Shown: positions 554-32,807 of the stretch, in pieces
How the letters are laid out: every line of letters begins with the position of its first letter
Position numbering within the stretch: the first letter of the stretch is position 1
IMG/VR virus record: IMGVR_UViG_3300043391_000280
Coordinates: 1-36,382 of that record
DNA from: a virus
Lineage: Duplodnaviria > Caudoviricetes
Direction: 5' to 3' (one strand)
DNA: 36,382 bases
Position numbers and translations under genes: made by a program
Notes under the pieces: generated by a model
The model's database searches: none
Told to the model about the DNA's origin: nothing
Seen by the model: the letters and a program-made list of their open reading frames with translations, nothing else

Positions 554-1495
554 CTAAAAAGGTCCGGTGGAGCGAGCACAAGGCCCAGCATCCACCGGAC
601 AGCCATCCGCAACGGGCGGGAGAGTGACACCCGCGCGGGAATTGATGGCAGCAAGGATTGCGTTGCCGATCAGTTCGGGAATTTGGGGAACTACGGCGTT
701 TCCGAGCCCTGCAAGTCTGTGTGCCCGATCGGGAACCCCATCAGCCACTCGACAAACGGCGGGTTCAACTTGCCACCATCCATTGCCATCACTGCATGGT
801 CCAAGCGGTCTGCTGAACGATCCCGCCCATTCTTGCGCGTCAAGGACGCAGGGCTTGACCCCTTGCTCATGGAAGTTGTTGGTGTCGGCCAAAATCGAAC
901 CATCGTCACAAGGCTGTAGATCTTCCCCGCTGCGATAAATGCATTCGAGTTGGGCATCATTGTTTTCCGCGGGGTAGGCCACAATCCAGACGCGCTCTCT
1001 GCGATGGGGAGCGCCCAAGGCCGCCGCTGGTATGTTTTCCCACTCTGCATCATACCTGAGGCAGGCCAAGTCTGCGAGAACTCGGCCAAACCATCGCCCT
1101 GGTTGCTCGCTAGGGCCACTAAGCAGCCCTGCGACGTTCTCCATGATAATGAACTTGGGTCTAAGGTCGCCAGCAAGTCGCAAGACCTCGGCATAAAGGC
1201 CGCTGCGTGTTCCCTCACCAATGCCAGCGCGTCTGCCCGCGCTGCTAAGGTCTTGGCATGGGAATCCTCCGGTGATGACATCAACGCCAGCAATTCCATC
1301 GGCAGCAAGTCGTTCTGCGGTAAGTTCTCGTACGTCTCGGTAACAAGGGACGTTGGGCCAGTGCTTTGCAAGGACACGACGGGGAAACTCCTCAATTTCA
1401 CAGAAGGCAACGGTTTCAAAACCGCCAGTACGTTCAAGGCCAAGCGAGAATCCGCCGATGCCAGAAAACAGATCGAGGACGCGCAGCTTATCCAT
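554..1495 (-). CDS. DNA (cytosine-5)-methyltransferase, large (alpha) chain
   Basis: Motifs I FSGIGG, IV GGFPCQ, VI ENV, VIII RRERVWIVA, X GLGNAVVPQ; no motif IX in this frame. Confidence 0.93.
   Translation of the reverse strand: MDKLRVLDLFSGIGGFSLGLERTGGFETVAFCEIEEFPRRVLAKHWPNVPCYRDVRELTAERLAADGIAGVDVITGGFPCQDLSSAGRRAGIGEGTRSGLYAEVLRLAGDLRPKFIIMENVAGLLSGPSEQPGRWFGRVLADLACLRYDAEWENIPAAALGAPHRRERVWIVAYPAENNDAQLECIYRSGEDLQPCDDGSILADTNNFHEQGVKPCVLDAQEWAGSFSRPLGPCSDGNGWWQVEPAVCRVADGVPDRAHRLAGLGNAVVPQIPELIGNAILAAINSRAGVTLPPVADGCPVDAGPCARSTGPF
556..600 (-). terminator. intrinsic terminator-like hairpin at end of MTase ORF
   Basis: GTCCGGTGGA...TCCACCGGAC 10-bp stem followed by CTTTTT on minus strand. 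Confidence 0.55.
691..1299 (-). CDS. overlapping-frame small (beta) chain of the C5-MTase; start uncertain (ATG 1299 or 1281)
   Basis: Frame open 1539-691, ends KLNPPFVEWLMGFPIGHTDL (motif IX-like), two WPTP repeats. Confidence 0.75.
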   Translation of the reverse strand: MELLALMSSPEDSHAKTLAARADALALVREHAAAFMPRSCDLLATLDPSSLSWRTSQGCLVALASNQGDGLAEFSQTWPASGMMQSGKTYQRRPWALPIAESASGLWPTPRKTMMPNSNAFIAAGKIYSLVTMVRFWPTPTTSMSKGSSPASLTRKNGRDRSADRLDHAVMAMDGGKLNPPFVEWLMGFPIGHTDLQGSETP

Positions 1496-1732
1496 TCAAG
1501 CCGCTCCCACTTGGTCAGCAGCCCGCACGAAAGGCGCAAGCATATCCTCGCCCGCCTGATTGAGCCGAAAGATCATCTCGCCAGCGCCGCCAGTCTCGAC
1601 AGTGCCCCAGCCTTTGCGCTCGAGCGCGCGTGCAGCATGTTTCGCCACAGCGCCGCGCAGGATCAGCGGGTAAGACCGCGCGCCCCATGCAACGGAGAAC
1701 TGGTTGTCGGTGAGGTTAGCGGCGTTCACCAC
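1496..1732 (-). CDS. hypothetical protein, 78 aa (possible winged helix)
   Basis: Abuts MTase start; ARALERKGWGTV...FRLNQAG pattern. Confidence 0.65.
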   Translation of the reverse strand: MVNAANLTDNQFSVAWGARSYPLILRGAVAKHAARALERKGWGTVETGGAGEMIFRLNQAGEDMLAPFVRAADQVGAA

Positions 1733-5115: not shown

Positions 5116-5866
5116 ATGAGCGCCTTGATCTATCACGGCACCCCCATGACTCCCCGCGCTGCTCTTGAAGCCGTAGGACCGGGCCGAGCGTTCTGCGTTT
5201 CGTTTTTCCACCCGCAAGACGTGGAGGTAGTGCAGGCGATCAGTCCTGCTGTGATGTTTCGACAACGGCGCGTTTTCGGAATGGAAAGCCGCCATGAAAC
5301 GCGGCGAGGACTGGTTTATCCGCGAGGACTGGACGCCGTACTACCGCTGGCTGGAACCGCGCTTGTTCCATCCGGGTCGCTGGGCAGTGATCCCCGATGC
5401 GCCAGGTGCGCCGAGCCAGCTCAACGATTCACTCATTCCAGAATGGCCGTTTGGGCAGAAGGGCGCTCCGCTATGGCACATGGACGGGCCGATAGATCGG
5501 CTGCTCAGGCTTTGCGAGCGGTTCGACCGGGTATGCTTGGGATGGACCGGCAAGGGGAAGACACTGGACACGCCGGAATATCACACGCGCATGGAGGAAG
5601 TTGCCGCCGCTTTGGGCAACCAATGGCCGGTCTTGCACATGATGCGCGGGACGGCAGTTGCGCACCTTTACCCTTTCGAAAGCGCGGACAGCACCAGCCT
5701 TGCGCAGAACGGATGGCGATATGACACAGGATTTGACTTTGGCGACCGATGGGCTGGCCGGAGGGCCTATGCCGACGCCTTGACGCGCAGGAGCGCGCGT
5801 GGCGCGAGGACAACCGGAGCGACGCGCTGGACGAGGATCCAGGCAAGACGGAGGCCAACGCTGTAG
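5116..5866 (+). CDS. TGT-fold/DpdA-like DNA base-exchange protein split by a +1 frameshift at 5257-5262 (about 249 aa if joined)
   Basis: Frame 0 IYHGTP...CVSF...VMF joins +1 frame DNGAFSEW...IPD...LWHM...HMMRG...YPFESADSTS. Confidence 0.65.
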
Positions 5867-12712: not shown

Positions 12713-15168
12713 TGTTCTTCCTTGGAAGCATTGATAGCAGCGATGAAACGCTTAACGAGAGGCGCTTCCTCTTGAGGCTTGGCCTTGCTCAATTGCAGAA
12801 GGATGTTGCGAGCGGCGCGGCTTTCCATGACGCGGGCAAGGCCACCGATAGCGCCCGCAGCTGCAACCGTAGCCGCCACAGTTGTCCCGCCGGTAGCAGC
12901 CCCGCCAAGCAAGCCGCCAACCATACCAGTGAGGCCGCTAAGGCCAGCAATCGCCACGCCCTGCTGCCCGGTGTTAGTCACCACACCAGCTTCACCCGCA
13001 CGGCGCGTAAGCTTGAGCGCCTTGACAAGGCCCCCGATACGCTGCGCCTCTTCCGGCGAAAACAGTACGCCGATAGCGTTGCCCTGCTTTTTGACAGCGG
13101 TGATGAACTTTTCAGGGCTGATCACCTCCATATCGCCGCCAATTTCTCGGAACACCTTATCCATGACAGCCGCGCGAGCATTGGCGCGGCCTTCAGGTGT
13201 AAGGGCACGATAAAGCGCCGCAACGTCGCTGCGCTTCTGGCTAAACAACAGGTTGTTAACTGCTTCCGGCGTTGCCTCGCCATTGCGAAGAACGGACTTC
13301 AGCGCCTGCTTGTCCAAGTCGCCCGCCAATTCCGAAAGACGGCGATTGGCAATCATCCACTTGTTCGCCTCGCGCGAGCCGCCATTGGCGCGAATGAAAG
13401 CGCCCATATCCTCGCGGAGCGGGTTATAGATGCGGTTCATGCTCTTTTGCGCTTCACCGCTTACCGCTGCCAATTCGGGAGACTTGAACTCTTCCCCGAT
13501 CTGCTTGCGAAGGACTTCAATATCCTTAAGGCTCTTGCCCTGAATATCGTTCTTCCAGCGCCGAAGAATTGAAATTGCGGGCGCAAAGCCTTTCGGGCTG
13601 ATACGCGAAAGCCGCGCAAGCTCGTCATCAATCGCGGCATTCGTGGCAGCGACCGGAACCTCGCCCGCGCTATTGACCGCTGCGATAGCCTGCTTTTTCA
13701 TATCGGCGTACTTGGTCAATTCGCCGCTGCGCTTAGTCGAGACACTGCGCCAAACCTTATCAGGTAAGCCTTCAGCGCCAGCGCCATAGCCCGTTAGAAC
13801 ATCCTTGACCGCTGCAACGCGCGCGTCCTGCTGCGTTGCGCGAAGCCCGCCCGTGCCCGCCAGAGGAATGCGCTCGCCAACCTGCTGCAGGTTCTTGCCC
13901 ATGAACGTCTGCGGCGGCGCAACGTCCGAAGCCATAACCGGGATGCCAGCGCCTTCAGCCGCTGCAACAGCCGCCGGAGCCGCTACGCGCGGTGCCTTCA
14001 TGGCTTGCGCTACACCAGCGCCCTTTGCGCCTGCAATGCCCCCGGCAAGCCCTGCGGCAATCTGTGCCACCGTGCCGCCGCCCTGCTCACGGGCAAACTC
14101 TGCACCCGCGCCAGCACCAGCACCGCCCGCAACCTGCTGGATAGGCTGCGCAGCCAAACTAGCCGCTGCCTGCCCTGCCATGCCGGGAAGAACGCGAGAA
14201 GCCATGCCAGCAAGGCCAGCGCCAGTCATTGCGCCGGTTGCGCCCTGAATGATGGCATTGCCCATTGGATCGGTGTTTTCAGGCAGGCCCAGCGCCTCGC
14301 GTGTGGCGCGCCCGAGATTGGTAGAAAAGTTTGTGCCAGCCAGCGCATTGATCGTGGCATTCAGCGGATTGCCGATAATGCCCAGAACATTGCCAGCGCC
14401 TTCAGCCATTGAGCCAAGGCCCTGCCCGATGCCTTCCATCGTCGTATTTGACTGCGGAAGTTCTGCGGTCGTTTGCCCCTTGGTAAAGGTCTTTCCGCCG
14501 TAGGTAAACGTATTGCCTTCAGCCTGCGCCTGCGTTTGCGCAATCTCTTGCGTGATCTGGCTCGGAACTTTGCCGTCAACCATTCCGCCAATCAGCATTT
14601 CAAGCAGCGAAAGCTTTTCCTTGATGGCAATATCGCTATCAGATGCCTGCGGAATGTAGGCCATAAAGACCATCATTTCCTTTTCGCTGTCGCCTTCTTT
14701 AGCGGTCTGTGCGACAAGCGGGCGAATGAGCGGGAGCATCGTCTGCGCTGCCACATTAAAGCGCTCATTTGTTGGCAGTGCGCTGAAATATTCAGTCAAT
14801 CCGCCAAGTCGTTCAAGCGGCTGGCCTTCAATATCCTGCTGGAACAAATCAGCCGTGCGCCCCATGATGGCGCGGATCGTATCGGCGCGCTTTTTAGATG
14901 ACGCTTCCTTGGAAGCAATTTCGATTTCAGTTGCGCTCTTTCCTTCACCGCCGCGACGAGCCGATGCTTGTGCTGCAATCACTTCAGGATCAGCAGGGCC
15001 ACCCGGAATAGGCGCAAGTCCGCCACCTGCCTGCTCAAAACCACTAGGCGGCTCTTTCGGCTTTTCAGGCGCGGGCGGAACATAGATAGCGCTGCCAGAC
15101 GTAGGCGCGGCCTGCGCCGGGTCTGCTACCACCGGGCTATCTGCCCACCAATCTTTAGTCTGTGCCAT
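12709..15168 (-). CDS. large DNA ejection/transfer protein (P22 gp16-like position)
   Basis: 819 aa, Ala/Gly-rich helical with hydrophobic segments; third gene of the ejection cluster. Confidence 0.72.
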   Translation of the reverse strand: MAQTKDWWADSPVVADPAQAAPTSGSAIYVPPAPEKPKEPPSGFEQAGGGLAPIPGGPADPEVIAAQASARRGGEGKSATEIEIASKEASSKKRADTIRAIMGRTADLFQQDIEGQPLERLGGLTEYFSALPTNERFNVAAQTMLPLIRPLVAQTAKEGDSEKEMMVFMAYIPQASDSDIAIKEKLSLLEMLIGGMVDGKVPSQITQEIAQTQAQAEGNTFTYGGKTFTKGQTTAELPQSNTTMEGIGQGLGSMAEGAGNVLGIIGNPLNATINALAGTNFSTNLGRATREALGLPENTDPMGNAIIQGATGAMTGAGLAGMASRVLPGMAGQAAASLAAQPIQQVAGGAGAGAGAEFAREQGGGTVAQIAAGLAGGIAGAKGAGVAQAMKAPRVAAPAAVAAAEGAGIPVMASDVAPPQTFMGKNLQQVGERIPLAGTGGLRATQQDARVAAVKDVLTGYGAGAEGLPDKVWRSVSTKRSGELTKYADMKKQAIAAVNSAGEVPVAATNAAIDDELARLSRISPKGFAPAISILRRWKNDIQGKSLKDIEVLRKQIGEEFKSPELAAVSGEAQKSMNRIYNPLREDMGAFIRANGGSREANKWMIANRRLSELAGDLDKQALKSVLRNGEATPEAVNNLLFSQKRSDVAALYRALTPEGRANARAAVMDKVFREIGGDMEVISPEKFITAVKKQGNAIGVLFSPEEAQRIGGLVKALKLTRRAGEAGVVTNTGQQGVAIAGLSGLTGMVGGLLGGAATGGTTVAATVAAAGAIGGLARVMESRAARNILLQLSKAKPQEEAPLVKRFIAAINASKEEQ

Positions 15169-15401
15169 TAGCCCTTAGGCTCCATGTGAATATGATCGCC
15201 CTCGTTAATCACATCGAGGCCGGGATTAAGACGGCGAAGCTGTGCAGCGTAGGCGCTCATGCTCATCCCCGGAGGCGGTACGCTGTCACGCGCGCGGCCA
15301 GACAGGTGATAGCTGTTCGCCACCCCGCCTACTGCCTTGTTTCGTGCTGGACTGCGCATTGTCGAAGTCACTCGCTCACCTTCAATACCCTTAGGGGCGA
15401 A
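15168..15401 (-). CDS. peptidase M15 (DD-peptidase fold)-like domain, probably a +1 frameshift extension of the upstream ejection protein
   Basis: VTSTMRSPARNKAVGGVANSYHLSGRARD...GDHIH metal motif; no convincing own start; overlaps TTT CGC CCC TAA. Confidence 0.7.
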   Translation of the reverse strand, partial: FAPKGIEGERVTSTMRSPARNKAVGGVANSYHLSGRARDSVPPPGMSMSAYAAQLRRLNPGLDVINEGDHIHMEPKG

Positions 15402-16257
15402 ACCCGCCGGTAGCGTTGCCGCTACCACCTCCCGGTTTTGTGCGGATAACACCATTGGGATCGTAAAACGCCGCTCCCGGCGGCAATGCGTCAAACTCGG
15501 CCTTGTTCTTTGGTCTGGCAGGACCACCGCGCTGCGCATTGGCCGGAATGCTTCCGCCCATCATTTGCCGCAATTGCTCTGCCGGGCCGCTAAAGAATCC
15601 GCCATTAGGAAGCGTGACCGTTACTTTTGTCCGCTCTTCCTTGAGTGCCTGCTTGAACTCCGGCGTGCCGACCGCCTGCGGCCCCATTTCAGCCACAAGG
15701 TTCTTAATCAAAGCCGTGTCAAGCTTCATGTCTTGGCTGGCATACATCGTCTTGTAGCGCTCGGGATCAAGCGTGAAGATCGTGTTTGCCAGCGCAACCT
15801 TGGCTTCCTCCGGACTGCGCTGCATTAGCTCAAGGCCAAACTGTAGCTCCTTGGCGTACTGCTCTTGCCCCGGCGTGTTCTTGGCTGCGGCCAGAAGCCC
15901 TTCGGCAATCTTCTGCGCCGAACCCGTATCTCCACGTTCAAGCGCTGAATAGACTTGCGTCGAGTAATTCAGGCGAGTCTGCTTGATCGCGTCATTGATC
16001 GGCTCGTATGCCTTCTTAATGGCGTCCGCCTGCTCGGGAAACTGTAGCATGAACTCGGACATAGTTTCTGGCGAGCGGTCAGTCTTAAGCCGCTGTACAA
16101 ACTGCGCATATTGCTGCTTACGCTGCTCTTGCGCAACCTGCTTTTGCATGGCCTGCTCTTGTGCCAAACGCTGCTGCCGTGCCGCCTGAAACGACTGCAT
16201 AAACGCCTGCCCCGGATCGGGCATAGCTTGCAGGAAGGGAAGGGGATTGATTGCCAT
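15391..16257 (-). CDS. DNA ejection protein (P22 gp20-like position)
   Basis: Gln/Ala-rich helical; C-terminal EFDALPPGAAFYDPNG module. Confidence 0.72.
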   Translation of the reverse strand: MAINPLPFLQAMPDPGQAFMQSFQAARQQRLAQEQAMQKQVAQEQRKQQYAQFVQRLKTDRSPETMSEFMLQFPEQADAIKKAYEPINDAIKQTRLNYSTQVYSALERGDTGSAQKIAEGLLAAAKNTPGQEQYAKELQFGLELMQRSPEEAKVALANTIFTLDPERYKTMYASQDMKLDTALIKNLVAEMGPQAVGTPEFKQALKEERTKVTVTLPNGGFFSGPAEQLRQMMGGSIPANAQRGGPARPKNKAEFDALPPGAAFYDPNGVIRTKPGGGSGNATGGFRP

Positions 16258-23780: not shown

Positions 23781-24641
23781 TCATGTGGCAGCGCTATCGC
23801 ACCAAGCGCCACACTCACTGTCGGCGGCGTCGGCATCAATCTCGCCCATCGGCAACAAAGGGCTGGACCGGGCGATGCGGAGGACTTCGGCAAAGCTCTG
23901 ATATCCAAATGTGAAATTCTTCGCCCGCTCATGCGCTGCCCAATACTCAGTCCCTGCCGGATCGCGCCGGGCGCGGGTAATACGGGTCTTGAGTTGCAGG
24001 AACGGGCAATGATCGCAATTCCCGGTGCCTCGCTCCAATTGAAGGTCGAACGGCATGGAGCCCCAATAAGCCAGCACGTCGGCCTTTCGGACGCCATCGG
24101 CGGCCAGCGGGAAGGCAAAAAGCCTTGCAAGATTGCGAGGCTTGCGCGGCAGTTCATATACCCGGTCGTATTCGTCGGCGCGGAACCCGATGACTTCGGT
24201 ATACTCGCCAAGCTTGTAGCCTTGCGCCTCCATGAAATCATGCAGCACACCGACCTTGCAGCGTTCGGTGCACCACCGACCAGTGATCGTCGAAAAGAGT
24301 GCCTGTTTCCGGGCTATCAGGCGGTCCAGCGGTTCCCCGGCCCGGCTCGCGCTGTTGTAGCCGACTTCCTCAAAGCGCCCCGCCGCACCAACGCTTCGCA
24401 GGTCGGTAACGAACTCCAACCAGTGAATGCGGACGTTCCACTTGGTCGCGCATTCGTGAACGAACCGCAGCGTTTCCTCGCGCTCTTTCCCGGTGTTGGC
24501 AAAGCCGACATAGATATTGTCGGGAAGCGCGCCCCCATGAGCGTCGATGATACGCTTGAGCATCTTGCCGCTGGTGCGCCCGCCAGAGAACGAAATCATC
24601 GCGGGCCCTTCAACGAGGTAGGGGTTTCTAACCACGGGCAT
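23781..24641 (-). CDS. PAPS-reductase-family (PP-loop) protein, cassette passenger
   Basis: ISFSGGRTSG, FANTGKEREETL, RWCTERCK, IGFRADE, GNCDHCPF, ECGAWC. Confidence 0.87.
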   Translation of the reverse strand: MPVVRNPYLVEGPAMISFSGGRTSGKMLKRIIDAHGGALPDNIYVGFANTGKEREETLRFVHECATKWNVRIHWLEFVTDLRSVGAAGRFEEVGYNSASRAGEPLDRLIARKQALFSTITGRWCTERCKVGVLHDFMEAQGYKLGEYTEVIGFRADEYDRVYELPRKPRNLARLFAFPLAADGVRKADVLAYWGSMPFDLQLERGTGNCDHCPFLQLKTRITRARRDPAGTEYWAAHERAKNFTFGYQSFAEVLRIARSSPLLPMGEIDADAADSECGAWCDSAAT

Positions 24642-31200: not shown

Positions 31201-31543
31201 CAATCACCCGGCGAGTGATTAGGTTAACTGCAATGTCATCGCCATCCTTGCCGGTATGCTCGTTGCGGACGGTTTCCTTCCAGCCCATCTGCGTCTTGGC
31301 ATAGAAGATGGCTGCGGTCATGTTGCCGTTAAGCGCGGCCTTAACGATGGCACCGCCAACCTTAGCCTTGGCTTCCGCAGCGCCAGCGTCCAAGTCCTCG
31401 CGGCACCGTTCCGCCAAGGTGTCAACGCACTTACCGATCAGCGTAGCGATCTGCTCCTGGGTGATGCCGAGACCAGCATACATGCGAATGCGCTTGCGCT
31501 CTTCCTCGGTGGGATTCCAAGGCTGTGGCCCGCGCTTACCCAC
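31184..31543 (-). CDS. terS: terminase small subunit
   Basis: GTG start; GITQEQIATLIG HTH, AAIFYAKTQMGWKE, EHTGKDG; directly upstream of terL. Confidence 0.82.
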   Translation of the reverse strand: MGKRGPQPWNPTEEERKRIRMYAGLGITQEQIATLIGKCVDTLAERCREDLDAGAAEAKAKVGGAIVKAALNGNMTAAIFYAKTQMGWKETVRNEHTGKDGDDIAVNLITRRVIDAPEG

Positions 31544-32807
31544 CGACCAGTTCCCGCTCGGCCATCTGCGCGAAGGTCTTGCCGGTCTCTGCGTGCGTTG
31601 CCTCTTGCCCGGTGAAATCCTGCCAGCGCTTGATGGTGACATCGACATAGGCCGGGTTCAGTTCGATCGCGTGAATGGAGCGGCCGGTCATTTCCCCGGC
31701 AATGATGGTGGTGCCTGAGCCTGAAAACGGCTCATAGACCGCCTGGCCGGGGCTGGAATTGTTCTCGATCGGGCGCTTCATGCACTCAACCGGCTTCTGC
31801 GTGCTGTGGCCGGTTTCGTTCTCGTTCTTCTTGGGCTTGGGAATGTGCCAGATCGTAGTCTGCTTCCGGTCGCCGGCCCAGTGGCCCTTTGCGCCCTTTT
31901 TGACGGCGTACCAGCAAGACTCATGTTCCCAGTGGTAGTCGCCGCGCGAGAGCACGAACTGGCCCTTGTCCCAGATGATCTGGGAACGCACATGAAAGTC
32001 GCAGGCAGCCAAGCTTTCGCCAACAACACACGCAAATAGTCCGGCGTGCCAGACATAAGCCACATCGCCGGGGAACAGCGCCCAAGCCTCAGCCCAATCG
32101 GCGCGGTCGTCGTTCTCAACCTTCCCAATGGCTCGGCCATTGGAGGCCAAGCCATCCGACCGCATCGCCTTGTTCCGCCAGTCTGCATCATACTCCACCC
32201 CATAAGGCGGATCAGTCACCATCAAATGCGGCGTCACCCCGTTCAGGCACTTCGCCACGCAATCCGCGTCGGTGCTATCCCCGCACACGATCCGGTGCTT
32301 GCCCAGCAACCACACATCACCCAGCACGCTCACCGGGTCGGTGGGCACCTCGGGAATGTCGTCGGGATCGGTCAGGCCCTCGGTCTTGTCCGCAAGCAGC
32401 GCCGCAAGTTCGTCATCGCTGAACCCAAGCAGCGCCAGGTCGAACCCGTCAGCGCCAAGCCCCTCAATCTCGCTGGACAGCAAATCCATGTCCCAGCCAG
32501 CGTTAAGCGCCAGCTTGTTGTCGGCGATAACATAGGCGCGCTTCTGAGCGTCTGTCAGGCCGTTCAGCGGTATCGTCGGCACTTCGGTAAGGCCAAGCTT
32601 ACGAGCGGCCTGTAAGCGCCCGTGTCCGGCAATGATGCCATTACCGCCATCTGTCAGGATCGGGTTAGTGAATCCAAACTCGCGGATGGACGCTGCGATC
32701 TGCGCAACCTGTGCGTCGGAATGAGTGCGGCTGTTGCGTGCAAAAGGAATGAGCGCCGCAACTTCACGGATCTCGACTTTTATATTCCCGATAGTTTTAT
32801 CCGCCAT
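31536..32807 (-). CDS. ParB-N domain fused N4/N6 DNA methyltransferase
   Basis: NSRTHSDAQ...IIAGHGR...IADNKL; TDPPY, HSTQKP, EPFSGSGTT. Confidence 0.93.
   Translation of the reverse strand: MADKTIGNIKVEIREVAALIPFARNSRTHSDAQVAQIAASIREFGFTNPILTDGGNGIIAGHGRLQAARKLGLTEVPTIPLNGLTDAQKRAYVIADNKLALNAGWDMDLLSSEIEGLGADGFDLALLGFSDDELAALLADKTEGLTDPDDIPEVPTDPVSVLGDVWLLGKHRIVCGDSTDADCVAKCLNGVTPHLMVTDPPYGVEYDADWRNKAMRSDGLASNGRAIGKVENDDRADWAEAWALFPGDVAYVWHAGLFACVVGESLAACDFHVRSQIIWDKGQFVLSRGDYHWEHESCWYAVKKGAKGHWAGDRKQTTIWHIPKPKKNENETGHSTQKPVECMKRPIENNSSPGQAVYEPFSGSGTTIIAGEMTGRSIHAIELNPAYVDVTIKRWQDFTGQEATHAETGKTFAQMAERELVGG

Follow-up and report, generated by a model that had tools for sequence, protein, structure and literature searches.

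A probable programmed +1 frameshift, with a Shine–Dalgarno-like motif acting across a hairpin, in a DpdA-like gene of alphaproteobacterial phages

Introduction

Natural +1 frameshift signals in bacteria are few, and no general motif is recognised among them (PMC10885494). The sequence UUU_Ynn is reported to be +1-prone in bacteria (PMC5009743), and Shine–Dalgarno (SD) motifs and upstream hairpins are each described as stimulating +1 shifting in a 70S lysate (PMC6321510). The described system nearest to the locus reported here is FseA of Mesorhizobium ICEMlSymR7A and related ICEs, where tRNA-Phe slips at UUU.C downstream of an RBS-like G-rich motif (PMC4755241, PMC10359603, PMC5009743), at a reported 4–13% (PMC4755241). 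The phage site shares both elements. The prfB (RF2) shift is also +1 and is stimulated by an internal SD-like sequence (PMC3711429). Influenza PA-X type sites (UCC_UUU_CGU) resemble ours in having UUU then C, a +1 shift and long overlapping open frames (PMC5009743), but they act on eukaryotic ribosomes, whereas the phage sites do not require CGN and conserve bacterial 5′ stimulators.

The gene concerned encodes a predicted DpdA-like enzyme of the same PHROG as Pantoea phage MED16 gp38 and the singleton DpdA of the Salmonella phage SEN1/SW9 group (PMC8306585, PMC6884629); as with the gene studied here, no full preQ0 pathway is seen adjacent to these. MED16 DNA is reported to carry dADG at ~0.13% of G, and the same text links this to gp38 by co-occurrence, not by knockout (PMC8306585, PMC6884629). 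Isolate-phage DpdA matches are single pieces in the 40 listed of 103, whereas the gene described here is split. A literature search covering main texts, few of them subscription papers, found no description of this frameshift or of an SD–hairpin cassette.

Results

A DpdA-like gene split at UUU.C

We analysed an entire virus record of 36,382 bases (the window), which carries a P22-like ejection cluster. Relatives occur as prophages in named genomes, mostly of Sphingomonadales and once of Caulobacter, and the prevalence of Sphingomonadales suggests a sphingomonad host for the window phage. The DpdA-like gene lies in a rightward block, downstream of RecT-like and NinB-like genes, and has the following layout:

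5116..5259, plus strand: 5′ part of the DpdA-like gene (M1–F48), ATG start at 5116; strands 1–3 of the predicted TIM barrel
5223..5227, plus strand: SD-like GGAGG (GGAGGT, 5223–5228), 34–30 nt upstream of the slip codon
5232..5249, plus strand: predicted RNA hairpin between the SD-like motif and the slip site, with GCAGG at 5232–5236 and CCTGC at 5245–5249
5250..5256, plus strand: unpaired spacer, 7 nt in the window (modal length 6 nt, 31 of 63 site-A clusters)
5257..5260, plus strand: slip site A, UUU.C (TTT C GAC, 5257–5263), invariant in 70 of 70 full-length site-A genes
5261..5866, plus strand: +1 frame from D49 to the enzyme end; PHROG 887 (E 4.7e-29), conserved columns, dN/dS 0.075–0.10
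5260..5724, plus strand: unshifted frame-0 tail, 154 stop-free codons after Phe, TGA at 5722–5724

A sequence-only reading of this DNA had placed GGAGGT, the stem, the 7-nt spacer and TTT C GAC as listed, had read frame 0 as open for another 154 codons and had predicted F-DNGAFSEW on skipping a base; we verified each of these in the sequence. Translated from 5116 without a shift, frame 0 gives 202 aa. Skipping C5260 gives the joined product MF-DNGAFSEW..., of 249 aa, with the predicted peptide ...SPAVMFDNGAFSEW... across the slip junction. Because the +1 frame has a TGA immediately upstream of the slip site and its first ATG (5294) lies past D-N-G-A-F, the second half cannot initiate by itself and retain that motif. 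The additional base is not an assembly error, since a contig from a different study (X4, record 7, 5147–5396) spans site A with 0 differences; contigs X1 and X2 possibly come from the source sample, and X5–X7 span site A with flank too short to count as bridging.

Breaks recur at few positions among homologues

The comparison drew on 204 loci. A search with the second half gave 26, and an alignment of the stretch between both break sites was then used to obtain 21 genome loci, the best 80 of 191 viral matches and the best 80 of 312 metagenome matches. Frameshift-aware alignment of 205 regions gave 149 distinct genes, and dropping 10 partial genes left 139 at full length. One break was present in 95 of the 149 distinct genes, always +1, and 54 had none; stops or second breaks occurred in 0 of 149. 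Among the 139 full-length homologues, whose viral and metagenome members are best-scoring, biased to close kin and not a measure of population frequency, 70 are broken at site A, 21 at site B and 2 elsewhere (1 each at two places), and 46 are in frame. Relatives are thus split at the same M-F-R point, a check that the sequence-only reading had proposed, and the extra base is not a peculiarity of this genome, 70 homologues sharing the break.

The break sequence at site A is ATG TTT CGA in 70 of 70 genes; site B is Pro-TTT-Y directly before xSADST. Lysogens that carry site A include Novosphingobium gossypii DSM 29615 and Sphingobium olei DSM 18999; Caulobacter sp. RHG1 has site B. All 93 full-length split genes break at an in-frame TTT followed by C or T. 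Clustering at 90% nucleotide identity gave 63 site-A, 17 site-B and 38 in-frame clusters, and exclusion of 7 distant in-frame rows left 31 controls. On a quick tree, well-supported branches require at least 4 changes for A and at least 3 for B, counts that recombination could inflate and that come from a sample whose clusters are not independent. As A and B occupy different positions, the break has at least two origins.

Some breaks lie elsewhere, each in a single lineage. Loci L011 and L031 have a +1 break (site C) at CCC TTT CTA after GGAGG and without a hairpin; a search of L011 found the SD-like motif and no hairpin. In L005 the +1 break is at CCC TTT TGT, three codons upstream of site A, and the open frame 0 is retained. 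Frame 0 also contains an extra TTT CGA, at the site-B position in the window (5674–5677) and at the site-C position in L152 (1793), which recurs because the enzyme frame reads TTC GA there.

Both halves are under purifying selection

In pairs at 80–97% identity, which are not independent of one another, dN/dS in the upstream, middle and downstream parts of the gene was 0.082, 0.075 and 0.099 for site-A genes (47 pairs), 0.081, 0.036 and 0.202 for site-B genes (5 pairs) and 0.074, 0.057 and 0.074 for in-frame genes (31 pairs). Purifying selection acts on both sides of the break, with dN/dS about 0.08.

The +1 frame of split genes usually continues ~45 residues beyond the barrel, overlapping the next gene. 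The C-terminus is QL-x-L-F/W-like, a pattern defined after the ends had been seen, in 38 of 62 A genes and 8 of 17 B genes. None of the 31 in-frame genes has it, and it occurs at 54 of 6735 control ORF ends; we take it to be a sliding-clamp motif.

GGAGG and a predicted hairpin precede the slip site

GGAGG stands at exactly −34..−30 in 62 of 63 site-A clusters. In the other classes, 3 of 31 in-frame clusters and none of the 17 site-B clusters have it anywhere within −40..−25. Its glutamate codon is GAG in 62 cases and GAA in 0, against a background of 345:233, so the motif is built by synonymous choice. In the in-frame or site-B sisters of site-A genes it is mostly absent, and frame 0 carries 1–6 stops.

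The window hairpin is modest when taken alone (−8.3 kcal/mol; z −1.59; 16 of 200 shuffles fold equally well), and the strong evidence comes from comparing relatives. Across the site-A class, mean folding energy is −11.0 kcal/mol compared with −8.4 ± 0.3 on synonymous codon redraw; the in-frame class gives −5.6 kcal/mol, and −5.6 redrawn. The bases at third-codon positions −25 and −10 are complementary in 42 of the 63 site-A sequences, where shuffling gives 32.6; in a single register, a subset picked after looking, 25 of 25 pair. Both the energy and the covariation signals are confined to site-A genes at site A. Modal gaps there are 1 nt before the hairpin (25 of 63) and 6 nt after it (31 of 63); the window hairpin leaves 4 + 7 unpaired bases, not the modal 1 + 6. 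Run on the full set of 63 site-A sequences, RNAalifold gave no common stem, because their stem registers differ. At their own site, site-B genes have an anti-SD pairing energy of −9.4 kcal/mol versus −5.3 and −6.4 in the other classes, and a hairpin at −9.0 versus −2.7 and −4.9. Downstream of site A or B, no structure differed from synonymous redraws.

The sequence-only reading had given a role to a slowly decoded CGA in UUU_CGN. This turned out to be unneeded: other sites use CGC, CGT, CAC, CAT, CCA and TGC, UUU is followed by a codon other than CGN in 5 of the 21 genes with site B and, among 49 paired matches of the ejection type, in 24 (CGN in 25 of 49), and CGA at site A is forced by the Asp codon that follows. 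The common element is GGAGG, a hairpin, about 6 nt and UUU.Y.

A second copy in the ejection cluster

The window contains this element once more, on the other strand:

15399..15432, minus strand: second cassette, with GGAGG (15432–15428), a 7-bp hairpin (15426–15409), 6 nt and UUU.C (15402–15399)
15391..16257, minus strand: 288-aa ejection-cluster gene, stop three codons past the second slip site; adjoins a P22 gp7-like gene; weak match to PHROG 917 (E 0.033)
15168..15398, minus strand: Peptidase M15 domain, reached via a +1 shift at 15402; Pfam PF08291 (E 1.2e-7, above cut-off)

A cassette filter, derived from the sites described here and hence partly circular, passes 2 of the 439 TTT-Y sites in the window, 5257 (plus) and 15402 (minus). 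We picked 26 sequences that share one geometry, 16 from ejection genes and 10 from site B. Their stem cells pair in 92.9% of cases, and each of the 7 pairs varies on both sides; slid controls reach 24–59% pairing. We then scanned viral contigs, covering part of the viral collection, with a pairing-blind pattern that fixes only the motif, the loop and the closing pair. It gave 119 matches, 104 of them distinct, with full pairing in 48 of 104. For matches with full flanks, a junction of long ORF, stop and open +1 frame was present in 31 of 33 paired and 0 of 36 unpaired sequences, and TTT lay in the upstream reading frame in 32 of the 33 paired ones. Of the 45 appended domains, 25 were tested; 13 of these matched SLT and 6 matched M15, and relatives also append unassigned domains.

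One record (G018; loci L245, L259 and L262) has three cassette copies, a site B in the DpdA-like gene and two in ejection-type genes. A weak test for host genes with the cassette in 17 genomes (150 candidates scored per genome) gave 7 matches at E up to 0.3; of the 6 inspected, 2 are known prophage site-B copies and 4 are without a frame change. A covariance model built from 18-nt hairpins did not recover site A in the window, and seven weak covariance-model matches in phage records were unconvincing. A tRNA gene search found none.

The unshifted frame is kept open

Sixty of the 63 site-A clusters have no frame-0 stop as far as the R-Y-D motif, against 0 of 17 site-B and 0 of 31 in-frame clusters; shuffling predicts 0.8. 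For the window alone, the open frame has P 0.004 by synonymous shuffling. It is kept within every separate A clade, and synonymous changes gained or lost a frame-0 stop in 0 of 446 distinct cases in A versus 28 of 383 in controls. Amino acid constraint was not detected in frame 0, its substitution pattern matching controls apart from stops. Synonymous divergence is unreduced and replacements are no more conservative, and we reject the tail as a functional protein. In 7 split genes, on a rough scan, the start of the next gene lies on the frame-0 stop. We infer that frame 0 is held open by selection for ribosome coverage, the sequence of the product being irrelevant.

The joined product is a predicted DNA transglycosylase

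An alignment-based model of the joined 249-aa product (pLDDT 92.7, pTM 0.88; single-sequence folding was poor, pLDDT 33.5) is an eight-stranded (β/α)8 barrel whose strand 3 ends at the break. For the +1 half, the PHROG match is 887, queuine tRNA-ribosyltransferase (E 4.7e-29), and viral matches include proteins of that name. Cap10, which is the top Foldseek match and comes from a complex with modified protein, not DNA, gives Z 14.3, DpdA 7ui4 Z 14.2 (rmsd 3.5, 217 aligned) and archaeosine TGT Z 14.2; PdxJ, an unrelated barrel, ties these TGT-family matches (Z 13.8). MED16 gp38, assigned DpdA, is 35% identical over 203 aa (E 1e-28 pairwise), and both proteins carry DNGAFS, PD, WH and ADST motifs. 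Conserved residues are D49, D94, H121, H174, R177 and D191; D49 and D94 follow strands 3 and 4 and D191 is on strand 8, and these three aspartates may be equivalent to TGT Asp102, Asp156 and Asp280. An hhalign profile comparison with host TGT gave no alignment, Pfam gave no match for the enzyme and a PDB sequence search gave noise only. The original TGT/DpdA-like assignment is upheld by PHROG 887, the fold search and the identity to MED16 DpdA. From sequence and model, the enzyme probably has DpdA-like DNA activity.

In the window copy, the usual 3′ end of the gene has been replaced:

5783 (approximate)..6470, plus strand: segment replacing the usual 3′ tail of the DpdA-like gene and its downstream neighbour, with a sigma-70 region 4-like fragment and a second ORF; alignment with the 3 closest relatives diverges here

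The sigma-70-like fragment matches Pfam Sigma70_r4_2 below cut-off (E 1.8e-5), and the junction is bridged by a contig from another study (X3, record 5). The predicted barrel lies wholly upstream of ~5783, and the window copy is without the clamp-like tail.

A QueD-like gene neighbours the enzyme at 28 of the 63 loci with site A, at 3 of the 17 with site B and at 8 of the 31 that are in frame, and the window has none; in 2 of 3 such genes tested the PTPS match was below cut-off. In a distant in-frame clade (L111, L112, L114) the next gene resembles what we take to be a YhhQ/VUT queuosine-precursor transporter. Small QueD-like proteins (L049 4443–4817, L053 4446–4811, L081 3474–3860 and others) have A-H...H-G-H-T-W and no Cys before HGH, and their genes often overlap the enzyme tail. 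They could be DpdL-like rather than QueD (PMC10516641).

Elsewhere in the window, a C5 cytosine methyltransferase and a long ORF that overlaps it in a different frame and has a match to PHROG 1008 lie at 554–1495 and 691–1539 (minus strand); the pair resembles, we assume, two-polypeptide methyltransferases such as M.EcoHK31I. A TTT CGG at 1570 (minus), before the overlapping methyltransferase ORF, was considered as a site and rejected, being without cassette signal. A PAPS-reductase-like gene (23781–24641) and a ParB–methyltransferase fusion (31536–32807), both on the minus strand, are further likely DNA-modification genes.

Discussion

Very probably, the break in the DpdA-like gene is the site of programmed +1 ribosomal frameshifting of the kind seen in FseA (msi172/msi171), here with a looped-out hairpin that separates the SD-like motif from the slip site. 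By analogy, the phage cassette reads as an FseA site with a hairpin inserted. The FseA G-run is described as ending 6–7 nt before UUU (PMC4755241, PMC10359603, PMC5009743), as it also does at the FseA-like locus L397, a spacing that GGAGG matches if the hairpin is looped out: the linear GGAGG–UUU distance is 29 nt at site A and about 25 nt at site B and the ejection sites, and becomes 7 with looping. FseA, as its published accounts present it, likewise belongs to an alphaproteobacterial mobile element and has homologues both split and fused, as the DpdA-like family does. The phage cassette differs in its 18–22-nt covarying hairpin between motif and slip site, in the genes that carry it, which are unrelated (DpdA-like enzyme, ejection protein), and in having arisen at several positions in one gene. 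Its unshifted frame is open for about 155 codons versus 6 in L397, one of 9 FseA-like host-genome loci inspected, which has TGG GGG, 2 codons and TTT C with an open +1 frame; one further such locus has the motif in an unsplit frame. The prfB shift takes place at CUU-UGA, where the A site holds a stop and the SD is closely spaced at 3 nt; the phage site has no stop and a distant SD.

In the mechanism that we propose, GGAGG would pair with the 16S anti-SD while UUU is in the P site, and the hairpin would refold behind the ribosome and loop out 18–22 nt, leaving about 1 + 6 unpaired bases, near the spacing of the FseA site. tRNA-Phe could then re-pair from UUU to UUC. A minority of ribosomes would slip and make the full-length enzyme, a predicted DpdA-type DNA guanine transglycosylase; most would stay in frame 0, where the product sequence would be irrelevant. 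These ribosomes would cover the mRNA through the gene, guarding it against Rho-dependent termination or decay, and would finish close to the next gene. For a temperate phage, the purpose may be to make little of an enzyme that exchanges bases. Drawing on host preQ0-pathway bases, the enzyme would modify a small share of DNA guanines. On the analogy with FseA, the low-level expression that the sequence-only reading had suggested appears plausible for the split genes; such throttling is not universal, 46 homologues being in frame.

Could the break instead be decay? An enzyme harmful to lysogens might have had T insertions repeatedly fixed at Phe codons: TTC to TTTC is a simple slip, the tree needs several origins and the window copy has lost its 3′ tail. 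The earlier reading had already preferred programmed expression to a pseudogene, and this part of it is borne out by breaks that are only ever +1, one per gene and without stops in 149 genes, by purifying selection on both halves, with downstream dN/dS about 0.08 among genes down to 53% amino acid identity, and by cis signals that track the position of the break. For the family, the pseudogene explanation is largely refuted, and we regard it as scarcely credible. Realignment of RNA polymerase is another route to the same enzyme, since a transcript that omits one base would be translated normally. A Roseiflexus IS630 element is reported to lose one base after a 5′ stem-loop (PMC5009743), and here the hairpin is followed by 6 nt and UUU, approximately the length of the 9-bp hybrid. 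That precedent requires a T5C5 run, however, whereas the phage spacers are of mixed sequence with three T; moreover, all 93 split genes and 32 of 33 paired full-flank matches have the TTT in phase with the upstream reading frame, and the conserved GGAGG indicates a ribosome. This origin is very unlikely.

The same elements might also serve initiation, GGAGG and the hairpin forming a bridged start for the ATG before TTT that gives an overlapping 155-aa protein or a short enzyme, with the N-terminal part separate. The ATG at −3 is invariant (63 of 63 at site A), the looped-out spacing fits initiation and the frame so opened is kept stop-free, but 30 of 31 in-frame genes have the ATG too, site B and the ejection sites share the geometry without a start codon, the frame-0 tail shows no amino acid constraint and barrel strand 3 ends at the break, all of which makes such a start highly improbable. 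A different role for the slip codons, in which the shift senses a hungry or unmodified codon (slow CGA versus queuosine-tRNA-Asp on GAC) and the enzyme is made only if the host supplies deazaguanine, would be a modifier of the frameshift mechanism and is not exclusive of it. CGA is rare in the window phage (29 of 8072 codons), the new-frame codon at A is Asp, 5 of 5 host genomes have TGT and CGN is enriched at ejection-type sites (25 of 49). Yet CGA-C is imposed by the conserved Asp, and at site B and the ejection sites a variety of other codons is used in either frame; we consider sensing unlikely.

Returning to the looped-out ribosomal frameshift, we offer a broader interpretation tentatively, as a possibility that we would not yet favour. 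The cassette may be a portable +1 device of Sphingomonadales and Caulobacter phages, writable into any gene at mostly synonymous positions, and used twice in one phage as a single translational dial for DNA modification and virion wall-cutting; the 155-codon frame, free of stops but not tied to any sequence, might then be a ribosome escort under selection, without which an enzyme frame so rarely translated would not be transcribed.

As a 5′ stimulator the cassette would be compact and testable. Its SD-like motif would act from the far side of a hairpin, and nature supplies compensatory variants as well as independent placements within a single gene. Its frame-0 tail, which appears to be selected for openness without selection on the product, offers a handle on translation–transcription coupling. 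About two thirds of the close homologues sampled from the DpdA-like family are split, and such genes would be overlooked or annotated as pseudogenes; the occurrence of 7-deazaguanine DNA modification among alphaproteobacterial phages may therefore be undercounted.
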